From Acaryochloris marina MBIC11017 (GTDB taxonomy: Bacteria > Cyanobacteriota > Cyanobacteriia > Thermosynechococcales > Thermosynechococcaceae), in assembly GCF_000018105.1 (NCBI RefSeq), contig NC_009925.1:5940001-5972000 (forward strand): DNA of 32,000 nt. Direction: 5' to 3'. Positions 2,025 through 32,000 of this stretch are shown here, one piece after another. The notes beneath the pieces were generated by a model. That model made no database searches and was not told where the DNA came from. It worked only from the letters and a program-made list of their open reading frames with translations. The stretch's first letter is position 1; every line of letters begins with the position of its first letter. The position numbers and the translations under genes are program-made.

Positions 2025-2854
2025 ATGAATTACGAAACAGCCCAAGCGCTAAGTGCAAAAGATTTCAAGCGACGAACTGGGGTCTACAAGCAAACCTTCA
2101 AACGCATGCTCCACGCATGGCACACCTATCACCTGAGTCATTCTAATGCAGGGCGACCTCCGAAGTTGTGCCGTCCCGATCAACTATTAGTGGCCCTTCA
2201 ATATTGGCGAGAATATCGGACCTATTTCCACATTGCTGGAGATTGGGAAGTCTCTGAATCAACGGTTTGCCGTATAGTCCACCAGGTCGAGACCGCTCTG
2301 ATGAACTCAGGACTCTTCCGCCTACCCGGCAAGAAACATCTAATACAAGGATTTGAGCGGCCTGATGTTGTCGTGATGGATGTGACTGAGACACCGATTG
2401 AACGTCCCCAAAAAGGACAAAAAGCGTATTATTCAGGAAAAAAAAGAGACATACCCTCAAATGCCAGATTATTGCTGACCGCAACACTTTAGAGGTTATC
2501 TGTCTGAGCTTTGGCCCAGGCCGTCGGCATGATTTTCAGATATTCAAGGGTTCAGGTATCCATATCCATCCAAATACCGAGAGTTTGCAAGATAGCGGAT
2601 ATCAAGGGATTGCAGCCTACCACGCCAACAGCTATGTTCCTTTCAAGAAGCCACAACATGGTGAACTGACTTCCTTGCAGCGAGAGTATAACTGTGCACT
2701 GAGTCAGGAACGAATGGGCATTGAACACATTAATCGCAGCCTGAAGATTTCCAGAATTCTGTCGGAGCGCTATCGCAATCGTCGTTGTCGCTACGCGCTG
2801 CGGTGTAACTTGATTGCAGCCCTCTATAACCATGAGCTATCTTTGGCTGCTTAA
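2025..2854 (+). CDS. IS5-family (DDE_Tnp_4 / Harbinger-like) transposase, split over two frames and joinable by a -1 shift
   Basis: ORF A (2025..2492) carries VVVMDVTETPIERP, the first catalytic D context. The -1 frame is open from the A8 run to 2854 and carries LQDSGYQG (second D) and MGIEHINRSLK (E). A -1 slip at 2438..2445 gives the family-typical junction YYSGKKKRHTLK. Confidence 0.8.
2438..2445 (+). other. A8 homopolymer: candidate -1 slippery site (A AAA AAA/G type), or a frameshift mutation
   Basis: ORF A frame reads GGA AAA AAA AGA. The frame one base back reads AAA AAA AAG AGA CAT. ORF A stops 47 nt downstream at 2490..2492. Confidence 0.5.
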
Positions 2855-5767: not shown

Positions 5768-7250
5768 CAATGGCACTGACTTAAGCTCAATCAAACAGCT
5801 AGCTTAGCTTTGAGAGCAGAGCGAGGTTGTCGCATTCGCGGGAAAGATTTGGGTCTGCGTTTGACGACTCTCGGTTCGTGCCGATTCGGTCGAGAGGGTA
5901 ATAGATCGGCTGCCATGGTCTCAAGTAGATGAGTAAACAACCGCTTTCTGGTCGCACGGTTGGCTGTCGCCAACAAAGCAAGCATCTGATTGAAGTGTTG
6001 TCGTGCTCCTTGCACAGACAGTTGAGTTCTAGCATTATCTGCTAGCGGTGCCGCAAGTTCCATGAGACTTCTGAGTAGGTTATAGCCCAACAAATGTACC
6101 CAAATGTCCTTGCGCACCATATCCGGAGTTTTGGCACTGAGCATCTCCATTTTTAAGGTGGTTTTGAGATGGCGCAGATTGACTTCCGCCACTGGCCAAC
6201 GCCAGCCATACAAGCGAGTCAGTTGCCCAGCGCTGTAGCGTTGAGCATCCAGCAGCGTCGTCACCACAATAATGTGCTGGTCGCGAAAGCCCTTAAGGGA
6301 TAAGCGCAAACACACCTCTCTAACGACCAATGTTTGAGGAATCAGGGCAAAATCTTGCTCACTCATGTGCTCAGGCCGTTGGGCTGGCTTATGCCATGTC
6401 ACCTGATGATCACCAATGCCATGCTTGTTGCCTTTGCGGAAATCAGTCTTGCGAGCATGATGTTTACGCAACACTCCATCAGCCCTGTGTTGTTGAATGA
6501 TGGCTAGATCAACATAGCTGCCATAAGCTTGGTCCGCCATGACCACATCACCGACCTCAAGGTCTTGATAGAGCAAACGACTCATGACAATTTCACTGGT
6601 GTCCCAGGAGGCAATACAAGCTGACGCCACTGCACCGGTAACCAAACAGAAGAACACTACCAAGCGAGCGATGGGAAAACCACAGCCTGCTGTTTGATTG
6701 CCATGTTGTGGATATGATGCTTGGTTGGCCGCACTATCAGCCATCAACACGGTGGTTCCGTCGTAGACCTTGACGGGCCGACCACACCAGAGGTGCTCTG
6801 GGGAGAGGGGTTGCGCTAAGCACTCAGCGCTTTCGGGAATTAAACGTTGCAACAGTGACTCTGGAAAGCGACTTCTGGCTTTGCTGTAGGCTCCGGTATC
6901 AGATGAGGGCGGTTGGATGCCAGCCGCTGTGAGCCAAGTCGTGATGCATTTGACTGTGTTACGAAGGCTTTTATCGGCTGATAGCACTTGGTAAAGCATG
7001 GCCCACAGCGTAACGATGGGGCTATATATCCGGTTGCGATAGGAGAATGCTTCTTCTTTCAGGAGTTCCTCTAACCTTGAGGCTGGAAGGATATCTGTCC
7101 ACGGTAAACCCAGGCTTTGGGAAAATTGCTGCTTGAGAATTTCGGCTGACTCAGACATAGTGAAAGGCAGAAGTTTATGGCGTGCAAGTCTTGATCCTAT
7201 ATCTATCAAGACTTGTAGCCTTTTCCTGACTTCTTAAGTCAGTGCCATTG
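5768..7250 (-). mobile_element. IS4-family insertion sequence, 1483 bp, perfect 18-bp IRs
   Basis: 5768..5785 is CAATGGCACTGACTTAAG, the exact reverse complement of 7233..7250. A single 472-aa DDE transposase fills the element. It is flanked by a perfect 10-bp direct repeat. Confidence 0.92.
5791..7209 (-). CDS. IS4-family DDE transposase
   Basis: VKVYDGTTVLMAD and GDVVMADQAYGSY are the D contexts. YGWRWPVAEVNLRHLKTTLKME is a YREK-like E region. The likely true start is MSESAEILKQ at 7158. Confidence 0.9.
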   Translation of the reverse strand: MIDIGSRLARHKLLPFTMSESAEILKQQFSQSLGLPWTDILPASRLEELLKEEAFSYRNRIYSPIVTLWAMLYQVLSADKSLRNTVKCITTWLTAAGIQPPSSDTGAYSKARSRFPESLLQRLIPESAECLAQPLSPEHLWCGRPVKVYDGTTVLMADSAANQASYPQHGNQTAGCGFPIARLVVFFCLVTGAVASACIASWDTSEIVMSRLLYQDLEVGDVVMADQAYGSYVDLAIIQQHRADGVLRKHHARKTDFRKGNKHGIGDHQVTWHKPAQRPEHMSEQDFALIPQTLVVREVCLRLSLKGFRDQHIIVVTTLLDAQRYSAGQLTRLYGWRWPVAEVNLRHLKTTLKMEMLSAKTPDMVRKDIWVHLLGYNLLRSLMELAAPLADNARTQLSVQGARQHFNQMLALLATANRATRKRLFTHLLETMAADLLPSRPNRHEPRVVKRRPKSFPRMRQPRSALKAKLAV

Positions 7251-8492: not shown

Positions 8493-9089
8493 CTAGAGTA
8501 CCCGTTGTTTCAGTACCTGAATTTCTTTTTCCTTTTGCTGCAGTTGTCCTTCCAACTGCGATTTCTCATGGGCGAGTTGGCTGACTTTCTGCTGTTCTAG
8601 CGAAAGCCGCATCTTGCAGGCATCTAGTCTTTGAAGCTGAATTTCTAGCAGTTCTGTTACTTCCATCAGCTTCGTGACATCCACATGGGCTCCTAACATT
8701 CGAACGGGCTGGTCAAACTGATCTCGAATGGCAATCCCTCGACATCGGACCCACACTATCTTTCCATTTTTCTTGGTATACCTAACGATTTGATCGTAGG
8801 GGTGAGCTGGATTGTCAAGATGCTTTTCTAAATTTTTGCGGGCAATGACTAAATCTTCTGGGTGGATTAAATCTTGCCACTCTGATGCTAGATGCTGTTT
8901 TTGGGCTGGAGAATACCCTAAAAAAAGCCAAAACTCAGGACTCATCCACTCATGCTCTGGGTTAACCAAATCCCAATACCAAACTCCATCTAAGGTCGCC
9001 CCCTGTAAAAAATCAAAGACGGAGGGGTCATTTAGGATCAATTCATACAGTTCCTGACGGAGATAATGAGAATCTTCAGCTGGCTTCAT
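8493..9089 (-). CDS. Stand-alone PAS domain protein with C-terminal coiled coil
   Basis: The PAS core is WYWDLVNPEHEWMSPEFWLFLGY...IHPEDL...VRYTKKNGKIVWVRCRG...VRMLGAHVDVT. The tail is heptad-rich (QLQRLDACKMRLSLEQQKVSQLAHEKSQLEGQLQQKEKEIQVLKQ). It starts 15 nt after the stop of the upstream kinase, so it is probably co-transcribed. Confidence 0.8.
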   Translation of the reverse strand: MKPAEDSHYLRQELYELILNDPSVFDFLQGATLDGVWYWDLVNPEHEWMSPEFWLFLGYSPAQKQHLASEWQDLIHPEDLVIARKNLEKHLDNPAHPYDQIVRYTKKNGKIVWVRCRGIAIRDQFDQPVRMLGAHVDVTKLMEVTELLEIQLQRLDACKMRLSLEQQKVSQLAHEKSQLEGQLQQKEKEIQVLKQRVL

Positions 9090-9103: not shown

Positions 9104-12100
9104 CTATTGCAATATCGGCACCACAGGCTGCAAGGGGAATTGGAGGATAAAGGTTGCCCCTTTACCTGGGGCGGATGTGCACGTCAGGGTTCCCCCATAG
9201 CTTTCGATAACTTTGCGACATAATGCCAATCCAATTCCTGTCCCTGGGTATTGATTGGAATAATGCAAGCGTTGAAACATGACAAAAACACGCTCCAAAG
9301 AGTCTTCAGGAATTCCAATTCCATTATCCTTAACCAAGATTGTCCAAGATTCAGGTTGTTGTTCTGCAGAGATCTGAATCCGCGGTGGAGTAGAAGAGCG
9401 AAACTTGATGGCATTATTGATTAGATTTTCAAAAACTTGAGTAATCTCTACGGTATGGGCATGAATAGAGGGGAGTGAGTCAAATTCAATAACAGCCTGA
9501 CTTTCTTCTATCGCTAAACTTAAATCGGATTGCACAATTTCGATCACGTGTTTCAAATCGATCAACTCTAGGGGTTGGTCGCTTCGTCCAACCCGAGAGT
9601 ATTGCAGCACATCTTGAATGAGACATTGCATCCGCTGTGCCCCTGACATGATGTACCCAAAGTATCGGCTTTGATCTTGATCCAGCTTTGTCGATAAATC
9701 GTCTTGTAACAGCTCGGCAAAACTTTGGATTTTACGGAGCGGTTCCCGTAAATCGTGGGAAGCGATATAGGCAAACTGCTCTAGCTCCTGATTCGATCGT
9801 TGTAGCTCTTGAATCGCTTGCTCTAATCTCTTTTGAGAATGCTTGATATCGGAAATATCCATACAGGAACAAATCAAACCAGCAAACTGATCGGCTGCTA
9901 TCCTAGGGACTCCCGTTGCCAAAATCCAACGATAGACGCCATCTGCTCTGGCTTGTCGAAATTCCTGCTCAAAGGGACATTGTTGAGCACAGCTCTCTTG
10001 GAATAAGGTTTTTACTCGATCACGATCCTCTGGATGAATGGTCTCTAGCCATCCGTCACCCAGTTGGGACTCCAAAGATTGGCCGGTCAAATTCTCCCAG
10101 GTTTGATTGACATAGGTACAGTTCCCTTGAGCATCACTGAGCCAGATTAAAACTGGAGCATTGTCTGCTAGGGAGTAAAATCGAGCCTCACTTTCTTGTA
10201 AATTACCTTCAATGGTATGTAAAGAGGCATCTTTTTCAGCTAAATCAGCTTCCAGATTGAGGTTGGATAATTCTAAAGCTGCTTCGGCTTGTTTCTGTAG
10301 GCTGATATCAATACAAGACCCAATCATGCCGGCAAATTCCCCTGTGGGTAGAAATCGAGGCTTGGCGGTATCTAAGATCCAACAATAGGTGCCGTTGCGA
10401 TCGCATCGTCGATACTCTAAACGCAAGGGCTGGCGTTCGGTAACGGCCTGTTGGTAAGCCGCCACACTTTCCTCTAAATCCTCCGGGTGAATTCTATCTT
10501 GCCAACCTCGTTCTAACGCTTGTTCTAGAGAATCCCCGGTAAACCTCAGCCACTCTTGATTCAGATAAGTGCAATGTCCTGGAGCTTCCGTGAGCCAGAT
10601 CATCACAGGTGCATGGTCCGCCATGGAGCGAAATCGCTGTTCGCTCTCTAGTCTCGCAGCTTCTGCCAATTTGCGTTGGCTAATATCGACCGAAACCACT
10701 AAGCATCGAGACACTTCTCCTAGATCATCACGCTCGGCAATCATTGATTGCAACACATCAATGATCTCACCTGATTTGGTCTGTATCTGCATCGGTATAT
10801 CAATGCTCAAACCAGACTCTAGAAAACGCGGCCATAGCTTTTGAAACCGCTTTTGGGACTCTAGGTTGAGAAATATATCGACGGTTGCCCCCAACGTCAT
10901 ATTGCGGGGATACCCTAATTTGGAGAGCCAGAAATTACTGACTTCTATAATCACTCCTCGAGCATCCAAGGAGTACATCATCACCGGGGTTTCATGGTAG
11001 AGCTGCTGATAGCGCTCTTGAAAAACCTCTAGGGTATCCTGGGCTAGCTTGGCTTTAATGCGCTGAGATTGGAGTTCAATCTGGACCTTGCGAGTGGCCG
11101 TAATATCAATAATTGACATCACCACTCCCTGTTGCTCATTATCGTTATCCACATAGGGATGGATCCGAATCAGCAAGTGTTGTCCATGGGCGTTAATTTC
11201 CTGCTCGGTGACTTTGCCAGTGCGGGCTGTTTCCGAGAGGACTTCAATCAACGAGGGATAGTTGACATTGATGGCTAAATTTCGAATCGGACGCCCCACA
11301 TCCGTGGGTAGAAATTGAAAAATTTGATTCGCAGCGGGGGTAAATTTCCGCACTTGCAAACTCTGGTCTAGAAACACCACGCCAATTTCTGTGCTGCGGA
11401 ACAGGTTATCAATGTCATTACTCAGAGCTGTCAATTCCTGAATTTTAGATTGATGTTCATTATTAACGGTGTACAGTTCTTCGTTGACGGCATGTAGTTC
11501 TTCATTGGTACTCTGCAGCTCTTCATTAGAGGCAATCAGTTCCTCGTTAGTAGCCTGCTGCTCTTCATTGGTACTTTCTAACTCCTCAATGGTGGCCTGT
11601 AGATTTTCGCGAGTATAAGACAGTTCCAACTCCAGCTGCTCAATCCGGTTGATCACCTCCGTACTACTTTCTACAGCCTGATCTTGTGCAGGGGGAGAAT
11701 TGCGGGAGCTAGCGGAGATCTCAAGTCTCAAGAACATCGATTCTCGGCAATTGGATTGGCAGGGGCTAACCTTGAACCTTAAGTCAAGCGGTCCATCCTT
11801 GTGCTCCCACAAGAGGCTGCTAAACTGTACTGGCTGCTTTTCTCGAAGGACTCGACTCATCGCCGAGATAAAGGGCAAATGCATCACCTCGGGGAGCAAG
11901 GATCTGACATTTTCAGTGGCTGGCCCCTCTGGGATACGTAAAATATCCAGGTGATCGGCACAAACCCGAAGTAACTTCTCGTCCGTATCCAGCAACAGAC
12001 AAGTCATGTTCAGTTCTTCAAGATGGGCTTTAAACGCATTCTCAGTCAGAGGGTCAGCTTGACGGCGGTAGCGAGGATCTCGCCCCGACACGACTGGTGT

Positions 12101-13612
12101 AGCAATCGTTTTAGTTCGAAAATAGTTTAGATTCAGGCGTTGATCCCTGAATTTCGAAAATATCTTATTTTTAGAATGTAAAACCTCAAATTCAGGCTCT
12201 AGTTCACCTAGGTCTTCAGAGGTTCCCAATAATAGAACTCCGCCCTTATTTAGGGAAAAATGCAGATTGCGCAGTACATACTGCTGCAAAGTAGGCTGCA
12301 TATAGATCAGCACATTCCGACAGCACACGACATTCATGCGGGTCAGACTGGCATTTTTGGTTAAATCATGGGGCGAGAAAATCAGCATTTCTCGCAAGGT
12401 TCGTTTAATCGTGAAGTGACCGTTATTGTAGGTGAAATATTTCTGCAGCCGGTCTACACTCACATAATCCGCAATAGACTCATCAAAGCTCCCTAATGCA
12501 GCTTTGTCTAGAGCAGTCTGATCGATGTCTGTTGCAAAGAGCTTAATGGGCATCTGTCGTCCCAGTTCCTCGCACAGCTCTCGAACAATAATCGCCATGG
12601 AATAAGCTTCCTGACCTGTCGCGCAGGCGGTTACCCATATCCTTAAGGTTTCTGCTGCGGGAAAATCTGCAATGATAGGACGCAAAACCTTATCTTTTAG
12701 GTATTCCCAAACCTTCTCATCTCGAAAGAATTGGGTGACATTAATCAGTAAATCCCGGCGTAGTAGGGAACGTTCATCGGCAGATTCGGTTAAGAGGCTG
12801 GCATAGTCGTTCAGTGAATTGTTTTGGGTTAAGAGTCGGCGGCGTTCGACTCGGCGGCCCAGAGTGGATGGTTTATATTGGGAAAAATCGATATCTTCAT
12901 GCTTGGCTAGCAACTCTACAATTTTTTGGAGTTGATGGGCTTCTGCACCTAAGTTGCTGCTAAATTTCACTAAATCTGCTGGAACGATGGCAGGATTTCC
13001 TAAATCGTTCACCATTTGCGCCAGAACTTTTGGAGCTTCTACATAATCAATACATCCAGTACTGATAGCGGTATGGGGCATACCATCGAATTCAGCCGTA
13101 TTGGGGTCTTGAACTAACGTAATCCCCCCACTTTCATGGATATGTTGGAGCCCATGGGTACCGTCGCTCCCTGTACCAGAGAGAACAATACCAATAGCAC
13201 GTTCTTGAATATCATCTGCCAAGGACTGAAAAAATAAATTAATAGGAAAGTTCGGCTTTTGGTCTCGCTTCTGGCGATAGAGGTAAAGGCAACGGTCCCG
13301 AACAATCATATTTTGACCTGCCGGGATCAAATAGATTGAATTGGGCTGAAGTGCCATCCCTTCTTCTGCAATCTGAATGCCCATTTGGGTACGACGGCCC
13401 AAAATTTCATTCATTAAACTCTTAAAATCTGGGGACAAATGTTGAATAACAACAAAAGCCACCCCCGAGTCAGGAATTATATTTTCAAAGAAAACTTCAA
13501 GAGGCTTCAGGCCACCTGCGGATGCTCCAACGGCAACGACATAGAATGAAGGAGCAATAGTGTTTAGCGTATTTGAATCAGCATTTAGGGATGGGTGATC
13601 GTTAGAATTCAT
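9104..13612 (-). CDS. CheB methylesterase - CheR methyltransferase - multi-PAS - HisKA/HATPase hybrid sensor kinase (1502 aa)
   Basis: The N-terminus has CheB motifs ([28 protein letters not shown]). A CheR SAM-methyltransferase region follows ([26 protein letters not shown]). Then come a NEEL coiled coil, several PAS/PAC units (IHPEDL x2), the H-box [16 protein letters not shown], and the N/G boxes NLINNAIKF and DNGIGI...GTGIGLALC. Confidence 0.9.
11432..11599 (-). repeat. In-frame 21-nt (heptad) repeat array encoding EExx[AS][ST]N units
   Basis: My translation gives [56 protein letters not shown], starting at about aa 672 of the 1502-aa protein. It is coding periodicity, not a CRISPR or VNTR. 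Confidence 0.9.
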
Positions 13613-14223: not shown

Positions 14224-16767
14224 ATGGAAATTAGAGAACTAGCGATTTCTAATTGCGATCGCGAGCCCGTTCATATTCCGGGTCGCATCCAAATCTTTGG
14301 GGCTCTGATTGCTACAGATAAGCATCTTGAGTCCATCACTCATGTTTCCAGTAATATCAGTGATTTTTTGGGAGTCACCCCTGCGGATGCTCTAGGACAA
14401 TCTCTCAGTATTTTGCTGCCAGAAGAGGTGATTCATACCCTCAGAAATATCGCAGGCCATCCCACCATCGCAACTCATCGGGAGCGAGCAGGGGTCTATC
14501 CACTCCATCAGTCCATGCTAGATATAAGTTTGCATCGATTGGGGCCTCATTTTCTAATTGAACTAGAGTCAGTTCCCTCGGCACAGCTCAACAGCCAATC
14601 CGCTTTTACTAAAATCCAAATGCTTCTGGCCCGTCTGCAAGATGAAACGGCAACCTCAGCCCTACTGCAACTAGCCGTCAAAGACTTGCAGCAAGTGACA
14701 GAGTTCGATCGAGTTATGGCGTATCAATTTCTACCCGATGGGGCTGGGGAAGTTGTCGCCGAAGCCATGGTAGATGAGTTGGAACCCAATCTTGGCCTCA
14801 GATACCCCGCTTCAGATATCCCTCAACAGGTCCGTGGGATTGCCTTAAAGATGCCTATCCGTGCGATCTCCGATATTGATGCTCCCACCGCCGACTTAAT
14901 TGCCGCCGATCCAACCGCAGATCCCCTAGACCTTACCCTGACCCATGTGCGGGCTGTATCTCCCATTCATCTGGAGTATTTAGCCAATATGGGGGTTCAA
15001 TCCTCCATGAATGTGGCCATTATTGTCCATAGGGAACTATGGGGGCTTTTTGCGTTTCACCACAACAGTGTCAAATTATTGCCCCCTGATTACCGATCCA
15101 TCTGCGATTTGTTTGGCCAACTTTTTTCCCTCAAATTCCAGTTGGTTTTGGAAGAAGAGCGGTTCAATAACCGCAAACACATTATTTCAGCGATCTCTCA
15201 GATCACCCAAAAACTGACGAGCAGTGGCAGTTTTACGCTAACCATACAAACTTTAGGGCCACAACTCTGCTCCATGCTCTCGGCCCAGGGGTTGGCCGTT
15301 ATTGACAAGCAAGAGATTCAAACCTATGGGGATGTTCCAGCGCTCGATATCATTCAAGAACTGGTTCATCAGGTTCAAACCCATCCCAGTCCTGAACTGG
15401 TGCCCCTAGAAAACCTATCCCACCTCGACCGTATCGATGCAAACCAACTGGGTAAAACGGCCGGTGCCCTCTGCCTTGGTATATCCCCCCTCGACGAAGT
15501 CTTCGTTATTTTCTTTCGCAATGAAATTATCCATGAAGTTCGCTGGGCCGGATCGCCAGAAAAACAGATAGTCGAAGGGCCAAACGGCCCCCGATTACTC
15601 CCCCGTTCCTCCTTTGCAGAGTATCGGGAAACGGTTGCAGGCCAATGCCAATCTTGGTCGTCCCTCGACACAGAAGCGGCCTTGGAATTGCGGACTGGGC
15701 TAATGCAGCTAGCGATCAGTCAAGGAGAAAACCAGCAGCAGGAATGGTTAAGACAACAGCGACAACAAGATCTCTTAATTGCTGAACTTAACCACCGCGT
15801 TAAAAATATTCTGGCCTTAATCCGGTCCATCTCCCGCCAAACCCGCCACTCCACTACTTCCGTCGAGGAATATACCTTACTGTTAGACCGCCGCATTGAA
15901 GCTCTAGCCCATGCCCATGATTTGGTGTCTGGGCATGGCTTGGAATGGCCCAATCTACAAAACTTGTTAACAACTGGACTCCGGCCTTACCTAGCAAAAC
16001 CCAAGCACCAAGTTAGTTTCTCTGGCCCAGAAGTGGGGTTAAAAGCCAACTTTGTTCCCATGTTTGCCTTAGTCATTCATGAACTGATGACGAACTCTGC
16101 CAAGTATGGGGCTTTATCAGTTCCTACCGGAAAAGTTGATGTCTGTTGGCGGGAACAGGATGGAGGGTTGGCATTTGATTGGGAGGAATCGGATGGACCG
16201 ACCGTCTTGCCGCCCCAGCGTAAGGGGTTTGGACAGACGTTAATCGAGCGAGCAATACCGTTTGAGTTTGAAGGAGAGGCAACGCTTCGCTTCCTCCACA
16301 CAGGCATTCAAGTCAATTTTTGGCTGCCTGCCCACCTGATCCTGCTCCAGAATGACCCATCAGAAATTTCCCCTCCTTCAATGTCCACCCCCCAGAACGA
16401 GGAGGAGCCTGACATTGCTCCTGGTACGGTTCTTCTTGTTGAAGACAACATGTTACTGGCCCTCGAAATGGAAAATCTTCTAGAGTCTTTAGGATTTAGC
16501 GATATAGATACGGCCCCCAGGGTCAAGCAGGCCATTAAACTCCTAGACCAAAAGCAATACATCATGGGTATATTAGACATCAACCTCAAGGACGAGAATA
16601 GCTTTGGCGTAGCAGAAGAACTGATCAAGCGACGAATACCATTCCTATTTACGACTGGCTATAATTCCAAATTTACTCTTCCAGAATCTCTAGCCACAGT
16701 CCCCATGCTCAAGAAGCCCATTGATGGGAATCAATTAAACAACACCATTCATCAACTCTTAGCCTAA
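14224..16767 (+). CDS. Bacteriophytochrome (PAS-GAF-PHY) with HWE-type histidine kinase and C-terminal receiver
   Basis: There is an N-terminal Cys in SNCDREPVHIPG (Cys11, 14254..14256) and the DIP motif YPASDIPQQVR. SPIHLEYLANMGV has no GAF Cys, and LWGLFAFHH follows. The PHY tongue has WAGSPEK and PRSSF. The HWE signature is ELNHRVKN plus FDWEESDGP...KGFGQTLIE. The receiver has LLVEDN...ILDINL...KKP. Confidence 0.9.
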   Translation: MEIRELAISNCDREPVHIPGRIQIFGALIATDKHLESITHVSSNISDFLGVTPADALGQSLSILLPEEVIHTLRNIAGHPTIATHRERAGVYPLHQSMLDISLHRLGPHFLIELESVPSAQLNSQSAFTKIQMLLARLQDETATSALLQLAVKDLQQVTEFDRVMAYQFLPDGAGEVVAEAMVDELEPNLGLRYPASDIPQQVRGIALKMPIRAISDIDAPTADLIAADPTADPLDLTLTHVRAVSPIHLEYLANMGVQSSMNVAIIVHRELWGLFAFHHNSVKLLPPDYRSICDLFGQLFSLKFQLVLEEERFNNRKHIISAISQITQKLTSSGSFTLTIQTLGPQLCSMLSAQGLAVIDKQEIQTYGDVPALDIIQELVHQVQTHPSPELVPLENLSHLDRIDANQLGKTAGALCLGISPLDEVFVIFFRNEIIHEVRWAGSPEKQIVEGPNGPRLLPRSSFAEYRETVAGQCQSWSSLDTEAALELRTGLMQLAISQGENQQQEWLRQQRQQDLLIAELNHRVKNILALIRSISRQTRHSTTSVEEYTLLLDRRIEALAHAHDLVSGHGLEWPNLQNLLTTGLRPYLAKPKHQVSFSGPEVGLKANFVPMFALVIHELMTNSAKYGALSVPTGKVDVCWREQDGGLAFDWEESDGPTVLPPQRKGFGQTLIERAIPFEFEGEATLRFLHTGIQVNFWLPAHLILLQNDPSEISPPSMSTPQNEEEPDIAPGTVLLVEDNMLLALEMENLLESLGFSDIDTAPRVKQAIKLLDQKQYIMGILDINLKDENSFGVAEELIKRRIPFLFTTGYNSKFTLPESLATVPMLKKPIDGNQLNNTIHQLLA

Positions 16768-16781
16768 AAGGATCTGGACAA

Positions 16782-17189
16782 TTGGCTAATATCCTGATAT
16801 TTGAAGACGATTTAATACTGGCAGAGTCTTGGCACAAAACCCTTAGTGCTCAAGGGCACCAGGTTGAACATACCACCAATGTCGATACGGCAATGTCCAA
16901 AATTTATGAAGGATATCTAGACATTGCTTTCATCGATATTTTTATTCAAAAGAACAATCAAGAGAGTCTTAGGGGAGGGATTTTGCTGATTTCCAAAATC
17001 AACATGCTCTCCCTAGGGTATAAACCATGGCTTATTGCCATTAGTGGACGTTCTCATGATCCCAGTTGTTCAGTCTTAGAAATTGCCAAGACAGTCGGTG
17101 CAGATGAATATCTGAAGAAACCGATCGATTTGGAGGAGTTAATTGCTGCAGTCGAACGAGTGACAAGTGCCCAGGTCAAAGAGCAGTAG
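16782..17189 (+). CDS. Single-domain response-regulator receiver (CheY-like)
   Basis: TTG start 14 nt after the phytochrome stop. Motifs are ILIFEDD, IAFIDIF and YLKKP. No output domain. Confidence 0.8.
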   Translation: MANILIFEDDLILAESWHKTLSAQGHQVEHTTNVDTAMSKIYEGYLDIAFIDIFIQKNNQESLRGGILLISKINMLSLGYKPWLIAISGRSHDPSCSVLEIAKTVGADEYLKKPIDLEELIAAVERVTSAQVKEQ

Positions 17190-17216: not shown

Positions 17217-17645
17217 TTACATATCATGGGGAGGCAACTTTACAATCGTAAACCAAAAGTCCTCCAGTAAATTGACCACCTTAACCAATCCCTTCAGTCC
17301 CACTGGTTTGGTGACATACGCATTTGCCCCGATCTTATAACTCTTCAGAATATCTTCATCTGCGTCTGATGTTGTCAGTACGACCACTGGTATTTGCTTA
17401 AACCGATCACTCTCTTGCATATCAGTCAATACTTCTCGGCCATCCTTGCGCGGTAAGTTGAGATCAAGCAACATCAAATCGGGAGTCCTTGCTGTCTCAA
17501 ATTCCCCTTTTTTTTGTAGATAGTCCAAAGCTTCTATACCATCTCTAACCACATTAACTCTGAGGGCAACTTTTGAACGATTAAAGGCTTCCAAGGTGAG
17601 TTCTATATCCCCCTCATCATCCTCCACCAGCAAGATTTCAATCAT
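17217..17645 (-). CDS. Single-domain response regulator, Rcp1-like (phytochrome-associated type)
   Basis: Motifs are ILLVEDDEGD, DLMLLDLNLPRKDGREVL, PVVVLTTS and NAYVTKP. The Rcp-typical C-terminus FWFTIVKLPP is present. Confidence 0.88.
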   Translation of the reverse strand: MIEILLVEDDEGDIELTLEAFNRSKVALRVNVVRDGIEALDYLQKKGEFETARTPDLMLLDLNLPRKDGREVLTDMQESDRFKQIPVVVLTTSDADEDILKSYKIGANAYVTKPVGLKGLVKVVNLLEDFWFTIVKLPPHDM

Positions 17646-22750: not shown

Positions 22751-23110
22751 CTAGCTGGCTGAGGGGGATTCTTCCGGTAAATACTGATTCAAGAACGCAT
22801 TCACTACCGACAAGGCAATCGGCCCTAGAAAGAATGCCAATAGGCCATCCACTCGGAAGCCGGGTACAAAAGCGGCGGCGAGGGAGAAGCATAACCCATT
22901 CAGCACGAGCAAAAAACCACCCAGGGACAGCAAGGTCAATGGGAAAGACACCACTTTCAGCACGGGTTTGACAATGGCATTCACCAAGCCAATGGCAATT
23001 GCAGCTGCGATCGCAGTGGGGATACTGTCCAAATCAACCCCAGCAAACACGTAATCCACCACCAGTAGACTGAGGGCTGTAGCCAAAATAGTTAACAGAA
23101 GTCCACGCAT
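22751..23110 (-). CDS. Phage_holin_4_2 / DUF360-family small membrane protein
   Basis: 119 aa with 3-4 TM segments. The characteristic motifs are LLVVDYVFAGV and LVNAIVKPVLKVVSFPLTLLSLGGFLLVLNG. Confidence 0.75.
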   Translation of the reverse strand: MRGLLLTILATALSLLVVDYVFAGVDLDSIPTAIAAAIAIGLVNAIVKPVLKVVSFPLTLLSLGGFLLVLNGLCFSLAAAFVPGFRVDGLLAFFLGPIALSVVNAFLNQYLPEESPSAS

Positions 23111-26880: not shown

Positions 26881-27162
26881 TTACTTTTTAGGAGCAACTT
26901 TTTCCTTAAATAGCTTACCTGCAGAGAAAGCTGGAACTTTAGTTGCGGGAATCTTCATTTTCGCACCGGTCTTGGGGTTACGTCCTTCCCGGGCCTTGCG
27001 TTCGCGAGGTTCAAATGAGCCAAATCCCACCAATGTGACTTTTTCTCCTGATGAGACAGATTCAACAATGGCCTCTAAGGCGGCAGTCAGAACTGCATCT
27101 GCCTGCTTTTTCGTGACACTTGCCTTATCAGCAACGGCGTCGACGAGTTCTCCTTTATTCAT
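26881..27162 (-). CDS. hup: HU-family DNA-binding protein
   Basis: MNKGELVDAVADKASVTKKQADAVLTAALEAIVESVSSGEKVTLVGFGSFEPRERKAREGRNPKTGAKMKIPATKVPAFSAGKLFKEKV is a canonical HU. Confidence 0.95.
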   Translation of the reverse strand: MNKGELVDAVADKASVTKKQADAVLTAALEAIVESVSSGEKVTLVGFGSFEPRERKAREGRNPKTGAKMKIPATKVPAFSAGKLFKEKVAPKK

Positions 27163-27855
27163 TGATTGACTCCTATTGTTCAGTTAAGCGTGAGCAAAAA
27201 AAATCGAGTCTGCAGTTCCAGAAAAATATAGATAAAACATTAGATTTATCTGGAGTGTGACTACAGTCTAACTGGCTGAAATGTCGCAACCACGTCGATT
27301 TAATGGAATATTCTAAATGCTATTCGCTAAATATAGATCGACAGAACCTTGATAATCTCTGGATTTCAGGTTTTTTTTGGTAATTACGAGTTTATGGCTA
27401 GAAAATTTTGGAGTGTTTCGGCAAAAGTTACAGACAAGTAAAAACCCCAGGATTCTTATTATATATGCATTTCAGGTATTCTTGTTCTAATGATTCTCGA
27501 TTGTTAATGACTAACAGGTTTTATTTGTCAGAAGAAATTTAATCCTGTAAAAAATTATTAAGTTAAGGCTCTTTTGGCGGTCTCAGCTGATAACAAGCTG
27601 TCCTTACAGTTGAAAAAAGTGAATGAAGTCTGAAAATTATTCTGCTTTTACCCACCCGTTTATATCCGCTAGGTAAAGTTCTGCTTGAAATTTAATTTCT
27701 TAACGACCGATGGATTGCTGGCTATATTTACTGAAATTTTATCTTTTGTTAATAATTGACGGAGCCAAAACGCAAAGTATTCTGATTAGAAAGCTAAGAA
27801 ATATGCACGGCTTCTTCTCGCTTCTGATAAATCTGAGAAAGAGATAGATGGTCGA

Positions 27856-27939
27856 TTAGACCTTTTTATCGATCACATCTTCTATTGATATAGAAAGCAG
27901 GTGCCAATTTAGACCTCTTTGAAGGTTGCAGTTAGACCT
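27856..27939 (+). promoter_or_regulatory. Three same-orientation copies of TTAGACCT(Y)T upstream of the tube operon
   Basis: Copies lie at 27856..27863, 27909..27916 and 27932..27939, with start-to-start spacings of 53 and 23 bp. They sit 116-199 bp upstream of the ATG at 28055. A random octamer is expected about once per 65 kb per strand. Confidence 0.45.
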
Positions 27940-28054
27940 TTGGCTACTATCAGTCGCTCTGTTTGCTCCATAGAGTGAAGCTGGTCCCTTATACCTTGTC
28001 CGAAGCAGGGGGATTGGGGGTTGGCGGGGAGAGTTGTGAATAGGTACTTGCCAT

Positions 28055-28276
28055 ATGAACCATGAGAATCAGTCTCTAGGAGGAAACTGGGGAATTTCAG
28101 GGGGGAACGGTTCGCCTAGACTGTCTGAGCTATCTGAAAGAGATAGGGTTTTCAGATTAGCAGCCCAGATTTTGCAAGATCCTCTGGCGCAATCTAATTT
28201 ATGCGATCGCATCTATGAATTGATGCAAAACGACTTGCATTATCAGCGCGAGCGAACCTACGGTGGAGGGTACTAG
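28055..28276 (+). CDS. Small hypothetical protein (73 aa), translationally coupled to the tube gene
   Basis: The Gly-rich N-terminus (LGGNWGISGGNGSP) is followed by a predicted helical C-terminus (RVFRLAAQILQDPLAQSNLCDRIYELMQNDLHYQRE). Its TAG stop overlaps the GTG start of the next gene (TAGTG at 28274..28278). Confidence 0.55.
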   Translation: MNHENQSLGGNWGISGGNGSPRLSELSERDRVFRLAAQILQDPLAQSNLCDRIYELMQNDLHYQRERTYGGGY

Positions 28277-28839
28277 TGGCTAGCAACAGTGAAACCCATA
28301 ACCTTAACTACGTCACCGCCAATCGCTTCTATGTCGAAATCCAAGAAAAGAGCTACATCAGTGCTTGCTTTACTGAATGTTCGGGGTTAAGCGCCAAAAT
28401 TAAGCATGACACCTATTTTGAAGGCGGCGTCAACAACCAGCAGCGGATCATACTCGGTCAAACTGAATTTTCTGATGTCACCCTCAAGCGGGGGATCACT
28501 AATGATCTGGTGTTTTGGGGGTGGGCCAGTCGTGTGCTTACCCAATTAGAACCGACCGATCGTAATGTCAATCCCCAACGTCGCAACATCAACATCCTCT
28601 TGTTCAATCAAGCGGGAGAAACCATTCAAACCTGGACCTTAATTGGTGCCGTCCCTGTGGCTTGGCAAGCACCCGCCCTCCAAGCAGACACCTCTACCGT
28701 TGCCATCGAAGAACTCACCTTGGCTTACGAAGGTCTAAAGGTTGTTGCCAATCTGCAACCCAGCAGCAATGCAGGTGGTGGGGCCACCTTCTTACAAGGT
28801 AGAGATGCAAATGCTGGAGGATTCTATCCCAGTAATTAA
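28276..28839 (+). CDS. Contractile-tail tube protein homolog (T4 gp19 / Afp1-Pvc1 / conserved phage-tail-region family)
   Basis: The family pattern is present: FYVEI...F.ECSGL...Y.EGG.N...L.G...FSDVTLKRGI....W.W, then RRNINILLFNQAGETIQTWTLIGAVPVAWQAPALQADTSTVAIEELTLAYEGL. A non-family tail of about 35 aa follows (ANLQPSSNAGGGATFLQGRDANAGGFYPSN). Confidence 0.85.
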   Translation: MASNSETHNLNYVTANRFYVEIQEKSYISACFTECSGLSAKIKHDTYFEGGVNNQQRIILGQTEFSDVTLKRGITNDLVFWGWASRVLTQLEPTDRNVNPQRRNINILLFNQAGETIQTWTLIGAVPVAWQAPALQADTSTVAIEELTLAYEGLKVVANLQPSSNAGGGATFLQGRDANAGGFYPSN

Positions 28840-28851
28840 CCTGCAAAGTTT

Positions 28852-31800
28852 ATGGATGCTAATTCAGGCCAAGGTCATCAATCTCCATCGGAAGAGATCC
28901 CTTCCTTAGACTCGCTTGGCCTTCAGCATCCATTGCTCCCTCCTCCGGCTCTAGGACAATCCTTTCTCCAACCCCATACCCTATCTCCCTTGGGCGCTGT
29001 ATCCCTAATCAATTTGGATACCCCTCTGCCGACCGAAACGGCTTGGGCAAATTCTCTAGGTAGTCAGGTTCCTAACCAGGTGCCAGGGGAAGCCATTGGC
29101 AACGGCTCCACGGGCCTTTCCAACATTTCTGATTCCTTCGTAACTCAGTCTCCAGAAACCCAACCCAACACTCTTGCTCCGAAAGTACCCACCGAAAGTC
29201 TGCAACCCAAATTAGAACAAACACCCTCCCATCAGCGACAGTCAAGCGCTCAGAACAACCCTGGCAAAATCGATAGTAATGCCGCTAGTACACCAAAAGT
29301 GCAACAGGCACCCTCTCTTGAGACTGGTGCAGTCATTAATAATGACCAACCCCAAATATCAGCCCCTTCTATTCAGCCTGCTCAGGATAGAGAACAAGAG
29401 ACTAGGGAAAGACCTGTTACTAAGCAAGCTGAGTCAGGAACACAGATTGCCCAAGAACAAAACAGCCCTGAAATAACGCTCCAACCCAAACTAAACAAGG
29501 CTCAACAGTTTAGCCCTCCACCCGCGAAATCCCATCTTCAACAATCAACCCTTTCCCCTGTTTCTCCCTCACAGGACGAAACTACTGGAGACCAGACATC
29601 ATCAGAGGTGGTTTCTAAGCAGACTATTTCTGAATCCAAACAGAAGTCTGAACAAACGACTAACCCAATCGTCCATTCCACCTCTAACGCAATATCTCCA
29701 GAGGTGAGTACTTCTGCGGAAGCACCAGATGGGTCCCCCCTCCAAGCGAAGCACCAGAATATCCTGGAAACTAAAGTTGCTTCTGAACCCTCCATAATCC
29801 AAGAGAGTCTCCCCCAGTCTCATGAACAATCCACTTCTCCTAACTCAGAAGTTAAATCTTCAGGCCCAAAACCTTCACCTTCTGCTAGGGCTACAAATGA
29901 TGATCCGTCGCCAACCCAAGACTCAGTCATCTCTGCCCCCAATCAGCCCAGCATCCAAAAAGCTTCGGCTACCAATGACCATTCTTTAGATCGATCTGCA
30001 CAAACAGCCCAGGTTGCCCAAAGTAAAGAAGTCTCCCTTCCAACAGCATCTCCACCTTCGAGTCAAAAACCAGTTATCTCTGCTCAACCCAACCAGGAAC
30101 CGCAAGTATCTAGCACTCAACCTAACAAATCCCAATCCGTTTCAATCCAAACTTCGCTGGAAGCCATAGCTCAAAGCAATAAGGAGGTAGCCACTAAATC
30201 ATCCCAACAAGGGACTGACACCTCAACGGACTTACCTAATAGTCAACCTATCGAATCTCAATCCATTTCTCAAACTTCACTGGAGACCACAGCTCACAGC
30301 GAGCAGGTTAGTACTAAACCATCCCAACAAGGGACTAACAGCAACACAGCTAAACCAGCTAGTGAGACTATCCAGTCATCTCCAATTCCCCCTATCGATC
30401 TGCAACCTAGCAACTCACAGCTTTCCCTCACAAATTCCAAAGAAGACGCTAACCCAAGTAGCTCAACTGATAGCAGCTCTTCAACTGAGACACCCATAAC
30501 ATCTAGCTCTCCCACCATACCTAGGGGGAAATCAATAGAAACAACACCTATTGAACAAGTCGCCCAAGCATCTCCTCAGCAATCTCTAGGTGAGAAGCCT
30601 TTATTGATTGAGAATTCCGAGACACCAAACTCAACAGCCCAGAGTAGCGAGAGTCAAACAGATACAACTGTTATTCAAAAAATAGAAAGTTCGGCAGCTC
30701 AGCAATCTTCTACTGACCACCCGCATACATCGAAGATAGAAACGAACCAAACTAGTCCGACTAGTCCCTCTTCCTCATCAAATGAAACTCCCCCTACATC
30801 CAGCACTACCCAAAAAACTGATGAGGATGCGGCACGGGCAACCGTTATTCAAAGAGCAGACGAACCATCTCCCGAGGCATCCACTAAAACAACTTCAAAA
30901 CAACAGATTAAAAAAAACAAACAGAAAAAGATTCCCTTACAAGCGCAGCTATCGCGCATGGGGAAACGAGCTAAACAGGATATTCATAAAGTTGGGATTC
31001 AGCTCAAGCAGGCATCTCATTCATTCCCCACTGGTCAATCTAGAGCCAAAACAAAAGGGTTGCAGAAATCCACTAGTGATTCTCCCCAACCGTCAAATCC
31101 TCCATCTATCCAAACCAAATCATCTCCCGACTCAAAGCAATCACCCTCTGAAGTACCTTTAGTCCAAAGTGAAGCCGAGGCTATAGAACAAGTTTCTCCT
31201 CAGGAATCTGTCAGGGAAGAGGCTTTACTAGAGAAAACTGAGATTGCTAACCATGAACAGAATTCTCTAACGGTTCAAGCAGCCCCTGAGTCTAAAGACT
31301 CACCCCAAAAGCATCCTCATGCTACTCCAGCGACCTCTGAACCGACGATTGAACCGACGATCGATCAAGACATACAATCTGACTCAGTCACAGATCTCCA
31401 AAAGAAGTCTGAGTCGGCCTCAGATTTTACAATTACTGGACAGCATCGAAATAATTCTGAATCTTCAACACCCGAGGTTAGTGTTAATCAGCTAAAGACG
31501 ACTTCATCGCCTAGTGCTACTTCAAGTGCTGGGACTGAAACTTCCCGACTAAAAACAAAGAAGTGGGGACAATTACCAGCACACCCCCTAAAACGGCTGA
31601 CCCATCTCAGTCAGCAGGTCATGGACACGGTTAGTCGTCAACTTGAACCTCATCCGAATGAAGAGTTCAATCCATTTCAAAGGCAAGAGCAGAATTTACC
31701 TAAAAACTCAAACCAGAAGCGTGAAGATCAGACCATTAGCCCTGCCTCACTTCACAGATCTGTAAATGGAGATCCCCAACCCTTACAAGATAGTGGTAGT

Positions 31801-32000
31801 GAAAATAAATCCGCAGCAACGTCCATTCAATCAGACATTCAAGCGAAGTCCTATTTACCCAATGCAAGTCTAGACACCGCTAGTCTATCAAAGCCTGAAC
31901 TTAGTTCAGATGAACAAGCGCATCTCAACAGTCAAACAGATTACCTCACCGATGTAAGTGCTGAAGAGCATCGCCAAACTCAAGAATTACCCACTGTACA
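28852..32000 (+). CDS. Giant low-complexity Ser/Gln/Pro/Thr/Glu/Lys-rich protein, partial (>1049 aa, continues beyond window end)
   Basis: Absent from the track because it runs off the edge. Every sequence line from 28861 to 31981 starts in this frame. I read all of them as triplets and found no TAA, TAG or TGA. The ATG is at 28852, 12 nt after the tube stop. I noticed no Cys codon and only two Trp codons. Confidence 0.8.
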   Translation, partial: MDANSGQGHQSPSEEIPSLDSLGLQHPLLPPPALGQSFLQPHTLSPLGAVSLINLDTPLPTETAWANSLGSQVPNQVPGEAIGNGSTGLSNISDSFVTQSPETQPNTLAPKVPTESLQPKLEQTPSHQRQSSAQNNPGKIDSNAASTPKVQQAPSLETGAVINNDQPQISAPSIQPAQDREQETRERPVTKQAESGTQIAQEQNSPEITLQPKLNKAQQFSPPPAKSHLQQSTLSPVSPSQDETTGDQTSSEVVSKQTISESKQKSEQTTNPIVHSTSNAISPEVSTSAEAPDGSPLQAKHQNILETKVASEPSIIQESLPQSHEQSTSPNSEVKSSGPKPSPSARATNDDPSPTQDSVISAPNQPSIQKASATNDHSLDRSAQTAQVAQSKEVSLPTASPPSSQKPVISAQPNQEPQVSSTQPNKSQSVSIQTSLEAIAQSNKEVATKSSQQGTDTSTDLPNSQPIESQSISQTSLETTAHSEQVSTKPSQQGTNSNTAKPASETIQSSPIPPIDLQPSNSQLSLTNSKEDANPSSSTDSSSSTETPITSSSPTIPRGKSIETTPIEQVAQASPQQSLGEKPLLIENSETPNSTAQSSESQTDTTVIQKIESSAAQQSSTDHPHTSKIETNQTSPTSPSSSSNETPPTSSTTQKTDEDAARATVIQRADEPSPEASTKTTSKQQIKKNKQKKIPLQAQLSRMGKRAKQDIHKVGIQLKQASHSFPTGQSRAKTKGLQKSTSDSPQPSNPPSIQTKSSPDSKQSPSEVPLVQSEAEAIEQVSPQESVREEALLEKTEIANHEQNSLTVQAAPESKDSPQKHPHATPATSEPTIEPTIDQDIQSDSVTDLQKKSESASDFTITGQHRNNSESSTPEVSVNQLKTTSSPSATSSAGTETSRLKTKKWGQLPAHPLKRLTHLSQQVMDTVSRQLEPHPNEEFNPFQRQEQNLPKNSNQKREDQTISPASLHRSVNGDPQPLQDSGSENKSAATSIQSDIQAKSYLPNASLDTASLSKPELSSDEQAHLNSQTDYLTDVSAEEHRQTQELPTV

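Follow-up and report, generated by a model that had tools for sequence, protein, structure and literature searches.

The 32,000-nucleotide stretch of Acaryochloris marina MBIC11017 analyzed here (positions 5,940,001 to 5,972,000 of the forward strand of NC_009925.1, hereafter the window) almost certainly ends inside a six-gene spike/hub module of a contractile injection system (CIS). The module, AM1_5907 to AM1_5912, encodes, in this order, a small protein, a tube-fold protein (putatively Cis5-type), a giant protein, a Cis7-type tube initiator, a VgrG spike and a DUF4280 PAAR-like tip. We consider it likely that these genes belong to an ordinary phage-tail-like CIS in a dispersed arrangement, in whose spike/hub module the giant occupies the tape-measure slot next to a small plug-like paralog. 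The CIS is a known kind of machine, and the existing annotation of this one already names phage tail, CIS tube and VgrG proteins. What is undescribed is the dispersal of the genes over three places together with their co-regulation by light quality, the disordered, hypervariable slot protein with two conserved ends, and the small paralog.

Three genes of the module lie on the plus strand at the end of the window. The first, AM1_5907 (28055–28276), encodes a 73-aa protein identical to ABW30846.1, and its TAG stop (28274–28276) overlaps the GTG start (28276–28278) of AM1_5908 (28276–28839, 187 aa) in a TAGTG sequence (28274–28278), with a GGAGG ribosome-binding site (28265–28269) 6 nt upstream of the GTG. 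This overlap, read directly from the sequence, couples the small open reading frame (ORF) to the tube gene as the initial annotation had proposed, and overlaps or gaps of a few nucleotides are also seen in relatives. The claim that AM1_5908 is a clear tube homolog was equally sound, as the protein matches PF06841 (7.6e-37), the gp19-type family TIGR02241 (1.7e-40) and the PHROG 4542 tail tube family (6.5e-17). Beginning 12 nt past the tube stop, with an ATG at 28852, the reported ORF of more than 1049 codons is indeed open to position 32000; these are the first 1049 of the 2418 codons of the giant, AM1_5909 (28852–32000), which runs 4.1 kb past the window.

The exact 187-aa tube protein was found on a 102-kb public contig, L001 (window coordinate = L001 coordinate + 18275), on which the full giant ORF encodes 2418 aa. 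AM1_5907 to AM1_5911 are all exact matches to A. marina MBIC11017 entries, which are annotated as hypothetical, phage tail protein, hypothetical, CIS tube protein and VgrG-related protein. AM1_5910 (191 aa) matches PF19266 CIS_tube (1.2e-18) and the solved tube initiators 8kea_P, Alg7, Afp7 and Pvc7 among the PDB chains; it falls short of these in length and showed no LysM domain. The 652-aa VgrG, AM1_5911, matches NF033848 VgrG_rel (2.3e-109), PF04717 and PF05954, and the 130-aa tip protein, AM1_5912, matches DUF4280 (1.3e-36). In two near-identical Acaryochloris contigs, holB and tmk follow the PAAR-like gene on the opposite strand, and therefore the module ends there. All of its ORFs are intact, including the 7.3-kb giant, and the module is conserved, with its HU and holB/tmk flanks, in several Acaryochloris strains. 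The first of the two readings in the initial annotation, a CIS locus that is led by the tube and the disordered protein and whose 5' edge is all that the window includes, was essentially right: when the contig was extended past 32000 and searched with profiles, the CIS_tube, VgrG and DUF4280 genes were seen to follow the giant in the usual order.

Is the system sheath-less, as the headline of the initial annotation had it? The statement that the tube has no sheath, baseplate, spike or AAA ATPase for company holds within the window, where family scans of the proteins encoded in the other 28 kb found no sheath, baseplate, spike, ATPase or other tail gene, only transposases, sensor kinases, response regulators and housekeeping genes; it fails past the window edge and elsewhere in the genome. 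The second reading that had been offered, a tube fold co-opted together with the small ORF and the giant into an undescribed machine that is not a CIS, is in keeping with the absence of sheath, gp25, baseplate J and ATPase genes from both the 32-kb window and the six-gene block. However, the same genome encodes a sheath, AM1_0271 (P0179, ABW25357.1 of MBIC11017), a 566-aa protein with PF04984 and PF17482 domains. We traced it through the cyanobacterial sheath family, using the sheath of a relative as the query, and then through cluster membership, to a locus (L096) of assembly AP026075.1; two high-ranking sheath matches that were looked up first belong to other organisms.

The minus strand of the sheath locus carries genes for a DUF4157/eCIS_core protein, an AAA+ ATPase (WHD+AAA, 664 aa), two small ORFs, a Pvc16_N cap, a LuxR-type response regulator and a histidine kinase. 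On its plus strand lie a small Pvc16_N protein, which brings the caps to two, the sheath, three gp19 tubes, proteins of 139 and 110 aa, a DUF6760 protein and a protein of 731 aa that includes a PBP-like domain. The two proteins of 139 and 110 aa, encoded 3' of the tubes, give weak matches to the PHROG 508 tail assembly chaperone (1.6e-4, 3.2e-4). Sample DRR194264 contains both a tube contig (L002) and a sheath contig (L097), and in another Acaryochloris strain, the spike and sheath modules lie ~40 kb apart on one 74.7-kb contig, where the spike module has the same HU and holB/tmk flanks. Since sheath, cap, tubes and AAA ATPase are found in the same genome, the system is not sheath-less; furthermore, the Cis7-type initiator, VgrG and PAAR-like tip of the block make sense only on a sheath-driven tube. 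A standard sheath, baseplate and spike set immediately downstream of the trio was what the initial annotation would have expected of an ordinary locus edge, and we found half of it: the spike set lies directly downstream, whereas the sheath and wedge genes are not adjacent.

Several features of the sheath module were noted in their own right. The DUF4157/eCIS_core protein beside the ATPase has 672 aa in one Acaryochloris strain (L096 711–2726, minus strand) versus >1063 aa, with a weak DUF3990 match, in another (L087 1–2700, minus strand), and such a size difference is as expected of a variable cargo. The LuxR/GerE-type response regulator and the histidine kinase are encoded between the cap and sheath genes (L096 6784–8642, minus strand). 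The PBP-like protein, whose ~730–850 aa comprise a kinase-like part at the N-terminus and a PBP-like (PstS-type) domain at the C-terminus, is conserved beside these CIS blocks (L096 14330–16782, L099 2623–5481, cluster C9 in many loci), in most cases accompanied by a divergent gene for a Nif11-like leader peptide. Its gene is the last of the sheath module in A. marina and stands directly 5' of the small ORF in relatives.

The third block comes from published data. AM1_6406 is annotated as a GPW/gp25 family protein, with AM1_6402 to AM1_6405 as its neighbors (PMC11633204), and this annotation, together with co-expression and the gene order in relatives, points to AM1_6402 to AM1_6406 as a putative gp25-led wedge module. 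A tblastn search of plasmids with a Cis11 homolog gave no match on Acaryochloris plasmids but did pick out the Pseudanabaena plasmid described below. The CIS genes of A. marina are thus split over three chromosomal places: AM1_5907–5912, the region around AM1_0271, and AM1_6402–6406. With HU and holB/tmk bounding the spike module, the core genes are not in one contiguous cluster, contrary to the definitions used in catalogues.

Are the three blocks used together? In a published A. marina transcriptome study (PMC11633204), the CIS genes appear in tables, without discussion in the text. The log2 ratios of white light to far-red (WL/FR) in MBIC11017, all significant, are -2.55 for AM1_5907, -1.93 for AM1_5908, -1.42 for AM1_5909, -1.31 for AM1_5910, -0.90 for AM1_5911 and -0.62 for AM1_5912, and they are -1.92 for AM1_0275, -2.29 for AM1_6406 and -1.5 to -1.9 for AM1_6402 to AM1_6405 (PMC11633204). 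The top 35 genes by induction in low far-red versus high white light in strain MU13 include orthologs of AM1_0269 to AM1_0274, with the sheath AM1_0271 among them, of AM1_0278 and AM1_0267, and also of AM1_5907 (log2 -4.46), AM1_6406 and AM1_6403 (PMC11633204). These values show that the small ORF and the giant are transcribed; AM1_5907 has the strongest far-red induction within the spike module, and the trio AM1_5907 to AM1_5909 is co-expressed, a point on which the initial annotation had suggested a check. In their joint induction in low far-red, the three separated blocks behave like a single regulon.

AM1_0267, the LuxR-type regulator, is itself co-induced with the cap and sheath genes (PMC11633204) and, with the kinase beside it, is a candidate regulator of all three modules. 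Inspection by eye for a cis-regulatory motif common to the upstream regions of the spike and sheath modules gave nothing convincing. The window also encodes a bacteriophytochrome-type sensor (PAS_2, GAF, PHY, HWE histidine kinase and receiver; 14224–16767, plus strand), ~11 kb 5' of the module, with single-domain response regulators beside it (16782–17189, plus strand; 17217–17645, minus strand). Its nearness to a far-red-induced module may be a coincidence.

The arrangement in relatives was examined in 80 cyanobacterial loci around VgrG homologs, in which the ORFs were clustered and the cluster representatives annotated by profiles. The block of small ORF, tube, variable-length protein, Cis7-like protein, VgrG and PAAR-like protein recurs across the 80 loci. 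Among the 27 informative loci, which show both a complete long protein and a tube next to it, a sensitive hidden Markov model (HMM) search placed the small ORF beside the tube gene in 22, so the trio is syntenic in these 22 cyanobacterial loci, and in most of the 27, the long protein starts 2–15 nt past the tube stop. Sequence after the spike genes is sufficient in 56 loci, and in 24 of these, the PAAR-like gene is followed by gp25, TIGR02243 (Baseplate_J) and TIGR02242 (Cis12-like) genes and then by Cis13-like, Cache/HAMP and WD40 genes, so that wedge genes (PF04965, TIGR02243 and TIGR02242) are seen directly in relatives. The remaining 32 have no gp25 within 4 kb after VgrG and are split after the spike genes. 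Another set of loci has a cap, a sheath, three tubes and two ~120-aa proteins 5' of the block, and stand-alone sheath modules are present in other cyanobacteria too. On an annotated Pseudanabaena plasmid, the trio is followed by wedge genes, with the small and giant proteins there called hypothetical. In A. marina, the cluster is broken between the PBP-like gene and the small ORF, two neighbors in many relatives. As the trio stands within contiguous clusters of relatives, it belongs to the interior of a normal CIS cluster, one that frequently comes apart into modules.

The 32 loci without a nearby gp25 would also suit a truly sheath-less machine. On the other side stand the sheath, caps, three main tubes and AAA ATPase of the same genome, the annotated gp25-led block, the co-induction of the three blocks and the contiguity of the spike block with sheath and wedge genes in relatives, and by these that reading, with its co-opted tube fold, is largely refuted; we regard it as extremely improbable.

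No more probable, in our view, is that the genes are a decaying prophage-tail or CIS remnant, scattered by transposition and now functionless. In its favor, the gene set is broken up into three places. Transposase genes (HTH_Tnp_4 and DDE_Tnp_1) also occur in the window at 2025–2492 (plus strand) and 5791–7209 (minus strand), and an IS1 transposase sits at the edge of the sheath module (L096 1–375). However, all ORFs are intact, even the one of 7.3 kb, several Acaryochloris strains retain the module together with its flanks, expression is coordinated and condition-dependent, and the same split is common in other cyanobacteria. The transposases in the window and at the sheath module fit a rearrangement that scattered the CIS modules.

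AM1_5908 is the fourth tube paralog in the genome; the other three adjoin the sheath and have weak CIS1 scores. AM1_5908 itself scores 75 bits with CIS5_fam versus 29 bits with CIS1_fam, missing both curated cut-offs (260 and 220). Its gene encodes a tube fold directly 5' of the cis6, cis7 and cis8 positions, in A. marina and in 27 related loci, and this gene position suggests that AM1_5908 is the Cis5/Afp5-type tube initiator, in which case it would form the ring linking the Cis7/VgrG hub with the main tube.

The giant, AM1_5909, has a mass of 260 kDa, a pI of 4.8 and a net charge of about -125. It is rich in S (16%), Q (11%), P (10%) and T (9%), which together make up 46% of its residues, and F, Y, W, C and M together make up 1.7%. 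The short motif [ILVM]Q[RK] occurs 18 times in it versus 3.1 ± 1.7 times in shuffles; the copies at residues 368, 608, 666, 737 and 849 are wholly inside the window, and a sixth, at residue 1049, begins on the last window codon. IQR-type repeats are enriched in most homologs, for example with 73 versus 4.9 expected in a Pseudanabaena homolog, where the spacing of the motifs follows multiples of about 20 residues. The acidic disordered sequence is broken by four short basic, helix-like islands (residues ~690–740, 935–965, 1170–1215 and 1330–1365; examples are LSRMGKRAKQDIHKVGIQLKQ, LKRLTHLSQQVMDTVSRQLE, LADRITNLGSEIRQRVDRSILKQ and ISKLRTTIVQQLTNLKPKK). The first two are inside the window at about 30920–31750, and one island corresponds to one non-disordered window of the composition analysis given below.

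Both ends of the giant are conserved. The C-terminal ~35 residues, LExLAxEIYxxLRQRLxIERERxGxxYxGRLPW, are found in nearly all of the 64 proteins at the slot regardless of length, and the complete slot proteins range from 183 to 3123 aa across species, or 17-fold. The main exceptions are five Nostocales loci with an unrelated 163-aa slot protein. In these loci (L025, L029, L030, L048 and L077), that protein is encoded 5' of the Cis7-like gene and preceded by a 545-aa protein, and there is no tube gene and no giant, which makes them a different variant of the hub module. At the other end, residues 22–55 of AM1_5909 (28915–29016, plus strand) carry the motif LG..HPLL....LGQSFLQP....PLGAVSL, whose family form is PLG...PLL...PLGQ...PKF..PLGA.SL, and an alignment of 9 homologs (1105–3110 aa) has nine invariant columns (M1, L22, G23, P27, L28, G35, P46, L47 and G48). 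Within Acaryochloris, the protein changes rapidly: it has 2418 versus 2188 aa in two strains, and AM1_5909 is alone in its 90% cluster. A 123-bp tandem duplication at 30117–30340 (plus strand; 1.8 copies, 78% matches; Tandem Repeats Finder, L001 11842–12065) is a trace of length change through repeat expansion. A search of a 5.8-billion-protein set with the giant C-terminal profile returned only 8 short fragments, probably owing to a word-index limit.

The 73-aa protein, AM1_5907, belongs to a family with 47 representative clusters in 1.84 billion proteins, nearly all of 64–116 aa and with the motif always C-terminal. An AlphaFold2 (AF2) model from a 46-sequence alignment has a disordered N-terminus, a helix at residues 24–41, a proline kink and a second helix at residues 43–70 (residues 24–70 being encoded at 28124–28264, plus strand), with a predicted local distance difference test (pLDDT) score >90 over ~residues 31–60. 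The second helix and the QRER..YG tail that follows are homologous to the giant C-terminal motif, with which they align in a family-to-family hhalign comparison (94.6%, E 6.5e-8), and the giant C-terminal HMM also matches small ORFs directly in 4 loci. The small protein and the giant match no Pfam, NCBIfam or PHROG family. The small-protein family, the giant C-terminal motif and DUF6760 gave no Cis6/Alg6 or tape-measure match in sequence and profile searches of PDB chains, and a Foldseek search of the 73-aa model against the PDB gave no matches.

Could the giant stand in for the tape measure? It is the long ORF between the tube/chaperone genes and the hub genes, one per cluster, a position that holds in 58 loci, and contiguous clusters such as L085 have no other tape-measure candidate. 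The conserved C-terminal helix of the giant would dock in the Cis7/VgrG hub cavity, as phage tape-measure C-termini and the Cis6/Alg6 plug do, while the disordered, acidic [ILVM]Q[RK]-repeat body would extend up the tube lumen. The N-terminal PLG motif might then be at the cap end or be bound to the chaperone-like proteins, and the chain would be expelled at firing. AM1_5907 would be the same docking helix without the long body, and judging by the shared motif, it may well bind the same hub site as the giant, where it would probably fill plug positions in the hub cavity or compete for them. There is no small gene between cis5 and cis7 here, as that slot holds the 2418-aa giant and the 73-aa gene is 5' of cis5.

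Several points weigh against this account. To date, no particle has been seen in A. marina, and the content of its wedge module was taken from published annotation. For AM1_5908, the PDB E-values are alike for Cis1-type and Cis5-type chains, and with these and NCBIfam scores below the cut-offs, Cis5 and Cis1 are not separable by sequence alone. AM1_5909 matches no tape measure or Cis6/Alg6 in Pfam, NCBIfam, PHROGs or PDB sequences. Tape measures of extracellular contractile injection systems (eCIS) have an alpha-helical center (bioRxiv 10.64898/2026.05.27.728243), whereas the giant is predicted to be disordered, as the initial annotation had it: at the level of composition, 44 of its 47 100-aa windows lie in the disordered part of a charge-hydropathy plot. 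At the published slope of 0.2156 nm of tail per residue (bioRxiv 10.64898/2026.05.27.728243), 2418 aa would correspond to a tail of about 520 nm, and 183–3123 aa to about 40–670 nm; with such a span among relatives, a plain ruler is implausible. Three giant chains (780 kDa) would, at crystal density, occupy about 75% of the space inside a 100-nm tube. Finally, the hydrophobic moment (amphipathicity) of the shared C-terminal helix is not significant versus shuffles.

The giant thus has the position and architecture of a tape measure but neither its homology nor its composition, and it would demand a tail of ~520 nm, so it is best termed a hub-anchored lumen protein in the tape-measure slot, a description that we hold with confidence and doubt in about equal parts. 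Its docking, its location in the lumen, any ruler function and its stoichiometry are accordingly worded here as what would apply if that description is right. The bolder version, in which the helical tape measure has been replaced by a spike-anchored disordered repeat protein, whose length is decoupled from that of the tube or determines it in a new manner, and with the 73-aa paralog supplying the remaining plug subunits so that the lumen would need to hold just one giant or a few, strikes us as unlikely.

Could the giant instead serve chiefly as a cargo or effector that is attached to the spike in the manner of Tme and ejected, with the tail length set otherwise? The 17-fold length range in close relatives, which fits a ruler poorly, speaks for it, as does the fast evolution of the protein within Acaryochloris, and in being disordered and acidic, it resembles the regions by which eCIS cargos are loaded. 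Tme, too, is the largest ORF of its cluster, about 70% disordered and encoded 5' of the hub genes, and it binds the spike and the tube initiator (PMC11126660). However, Pfam and NCBIfam scans found no enzymatic or toxin domain, transmembrane segment or DUF4157 in AM1_5909; both of its termini are conserved, and not just one loading signal; contiguous clusters offer no other candidate for the tape measure; and the separate DUF4157 protein beside the ATPase is the likelier cargo. We therefore judge a mainly cargo role improbable, although it overlaps with a place in the tape-measure slot because tape measures are ejected too.

For the small protein, a plug-like role is possible but somewhat doubtful. 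It might instead act on the giant as a chaperone, in the way of phage tail assembly chaperones, or as a regulator, or else compete with giant chains and so keep down their number in the hub, and not be a structural plug subunit. AM1_5907 opens the module and has the strongest induction in it, it lies 5' of cis5 and not at the cis6 position between cis5 and cis7, it is unlike the Alg6/Cis6 chains in the PDB, and its counterpart is absent from five Oscillatoriales-type loci with short giants (227–325 aa), all of which would suit such a helper. On the other hand, the motif that it shares with the giant C-terminus argues for the same binding site and not for binding to the giant, the sheath module already has separate chaperone-like proteins, and the small ORF also occurs with short giants in L037, L078 and L058. 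A non-structural role is, in our estimation, rather unlikely. The notion that the small ORF occurs only with long giants was rejected, as it is absent in the five Oscillatoriales loci and present elsewhere with versions of 280–364 aa.

Upstream of the module, the HU gene (93 aa, minus strand) ends at 27162, and the 892 bp from there to the small ORF (27163–28054) therefore hold no credible gene, in agreement with the initial annotation, which had described 892 bp of non-coding DNA and then HU. No credible ORF and no Rfam family was found in this region, and a promoter/terminator scan was not above chance, with 5 promoter-like matches versus 3.6 ± 1.8 in shuffles; presumably it holds the promoters of HU and of the small ORF. 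Blocks at ~27262–27385 (~125 bp, HU-proximal) and 27535–27568 are nearly identical in two Acaryochloris strains and are probably the HU promoter and leader, whereas the 300 bp nearest the small ORF are not alignable between the two.

Elsewhere in the window, a 1502-aa protein (9104–13612, minus strand) fuses CheB methylesterase and CheR methyltransferase to several PAS domains and a histidine kinase, and the gene for a 198-aa PAS protein (8493–9089, minus strand) follows. A 119-aa Phage_holin_4_2 protein (22751–23110, minus strand) is encoded amid housekeeping genes 5 kb 5' of the module, with no further phage gene close by.

What might these findings mean? Catalogues that require a contiguous cluster will miss or mis-score dispersed systems such as the related loci that are split after the spike genes. 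The slot protein and its small paralog bear on how eCIS length is set and on how an unfolded cargo sits in the lumen, and induction in low far-red gives a simple handle for making particles from Acaryochloris for structural work. A disordered replacement for the tape measure, if true, would amount to a novel route to assembling and loading a contractile tail, and it could offer a natural scaffold on which a very long unfolded polypeptide is packed for injection.

The closest known systems are the thylakoid-anchored CIS of Anabaena (tCIS, all3313–all3327; PMC8894136) and the Algoriphagus eCIS (AlgoCIS; PMC8894135), which have the same parts as here: Cis1 tube, Cis2 sheath, Cis5 (putative in A. 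marina) and Cis7 initiators, Cis8 VgrG-like spike and PAAR-like tip. Further parts in common are Cis16 cap, AAA ATPase and a DUF4157 protein and, by the annotation of A. marina, gp25 and a putative wedge, and the local order of cis5, an intervening gene, cis7 and cis8 is as in A. marina. However, these clusters are single contiguous operons, whereas the A. marina genes are at three places. The gene between cis5 and cis7 encodes 50 aa (Cis6) in Anabaena versus a disordered protein of 2418 aa in A. marina, with the 73-aa paralog added 5' of cis5. In AlgoCIS and tCIS, the small plug Alg6/Cis6, which has a C-terminal helix, forms a helical trimer in the spike cavity that is needed for assembly (PMC8894135, PMC8894136), but the solved Cis6/Alg6 chains have no sequence similarity to the small protein or to the giant C-terminal motif. 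In A. marina, moreover, Cis7 lacks LysM, and no counterpart is seen of the separate helical Cis14 tape measure that both systems have.

The order in phage P2 and R-type pyocins resembles that of the contiguous relatives, in which the tubes and two weak assembly-chaperone matches precede a long protein directly 5' of the initiator and hub. The likeness to their tape measures extends to a long protein with a conserved C-terminus, as expected of the end that docks at the hub. On the other hand, the giant is by its composition not helical, lacks tape-measure homology and varies 17-fold in length between related species, and an extra tube paralog and the small ORF are inserted before the long protein.

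Tme of the Streptomyces davawensis CIS (PMC11126660) is, like the giant, the largest ORF, mostly disordered and encoded just 5' of the tube initiator and spike, with both of which it interacts (PMC11126660). Unlike AM1_5909, it has a DUF4157 domain, transmembrane helices, coiled coils and a C-terminal endonuclease, whereas in AM1_5909, two conserved ends flank a body of short [ILVM]Q[RK] repeats. Another likeness is that to the orphan vgrG/PAAR islands of the type VI secretion system (T6SS), whose spike genes lie apart from the sheath and baseplate genes of the machine that uses them. Yet the A. marina block is unique in its genome, not an extra copy, and carries essential core parts, namely the tube initiators and the protein of the tape-measure slot, and with its Pvc16 cap, AAA ATPase and DUF4157 protein, the A. 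marina lineage is eCIS-like and not a T6SS.

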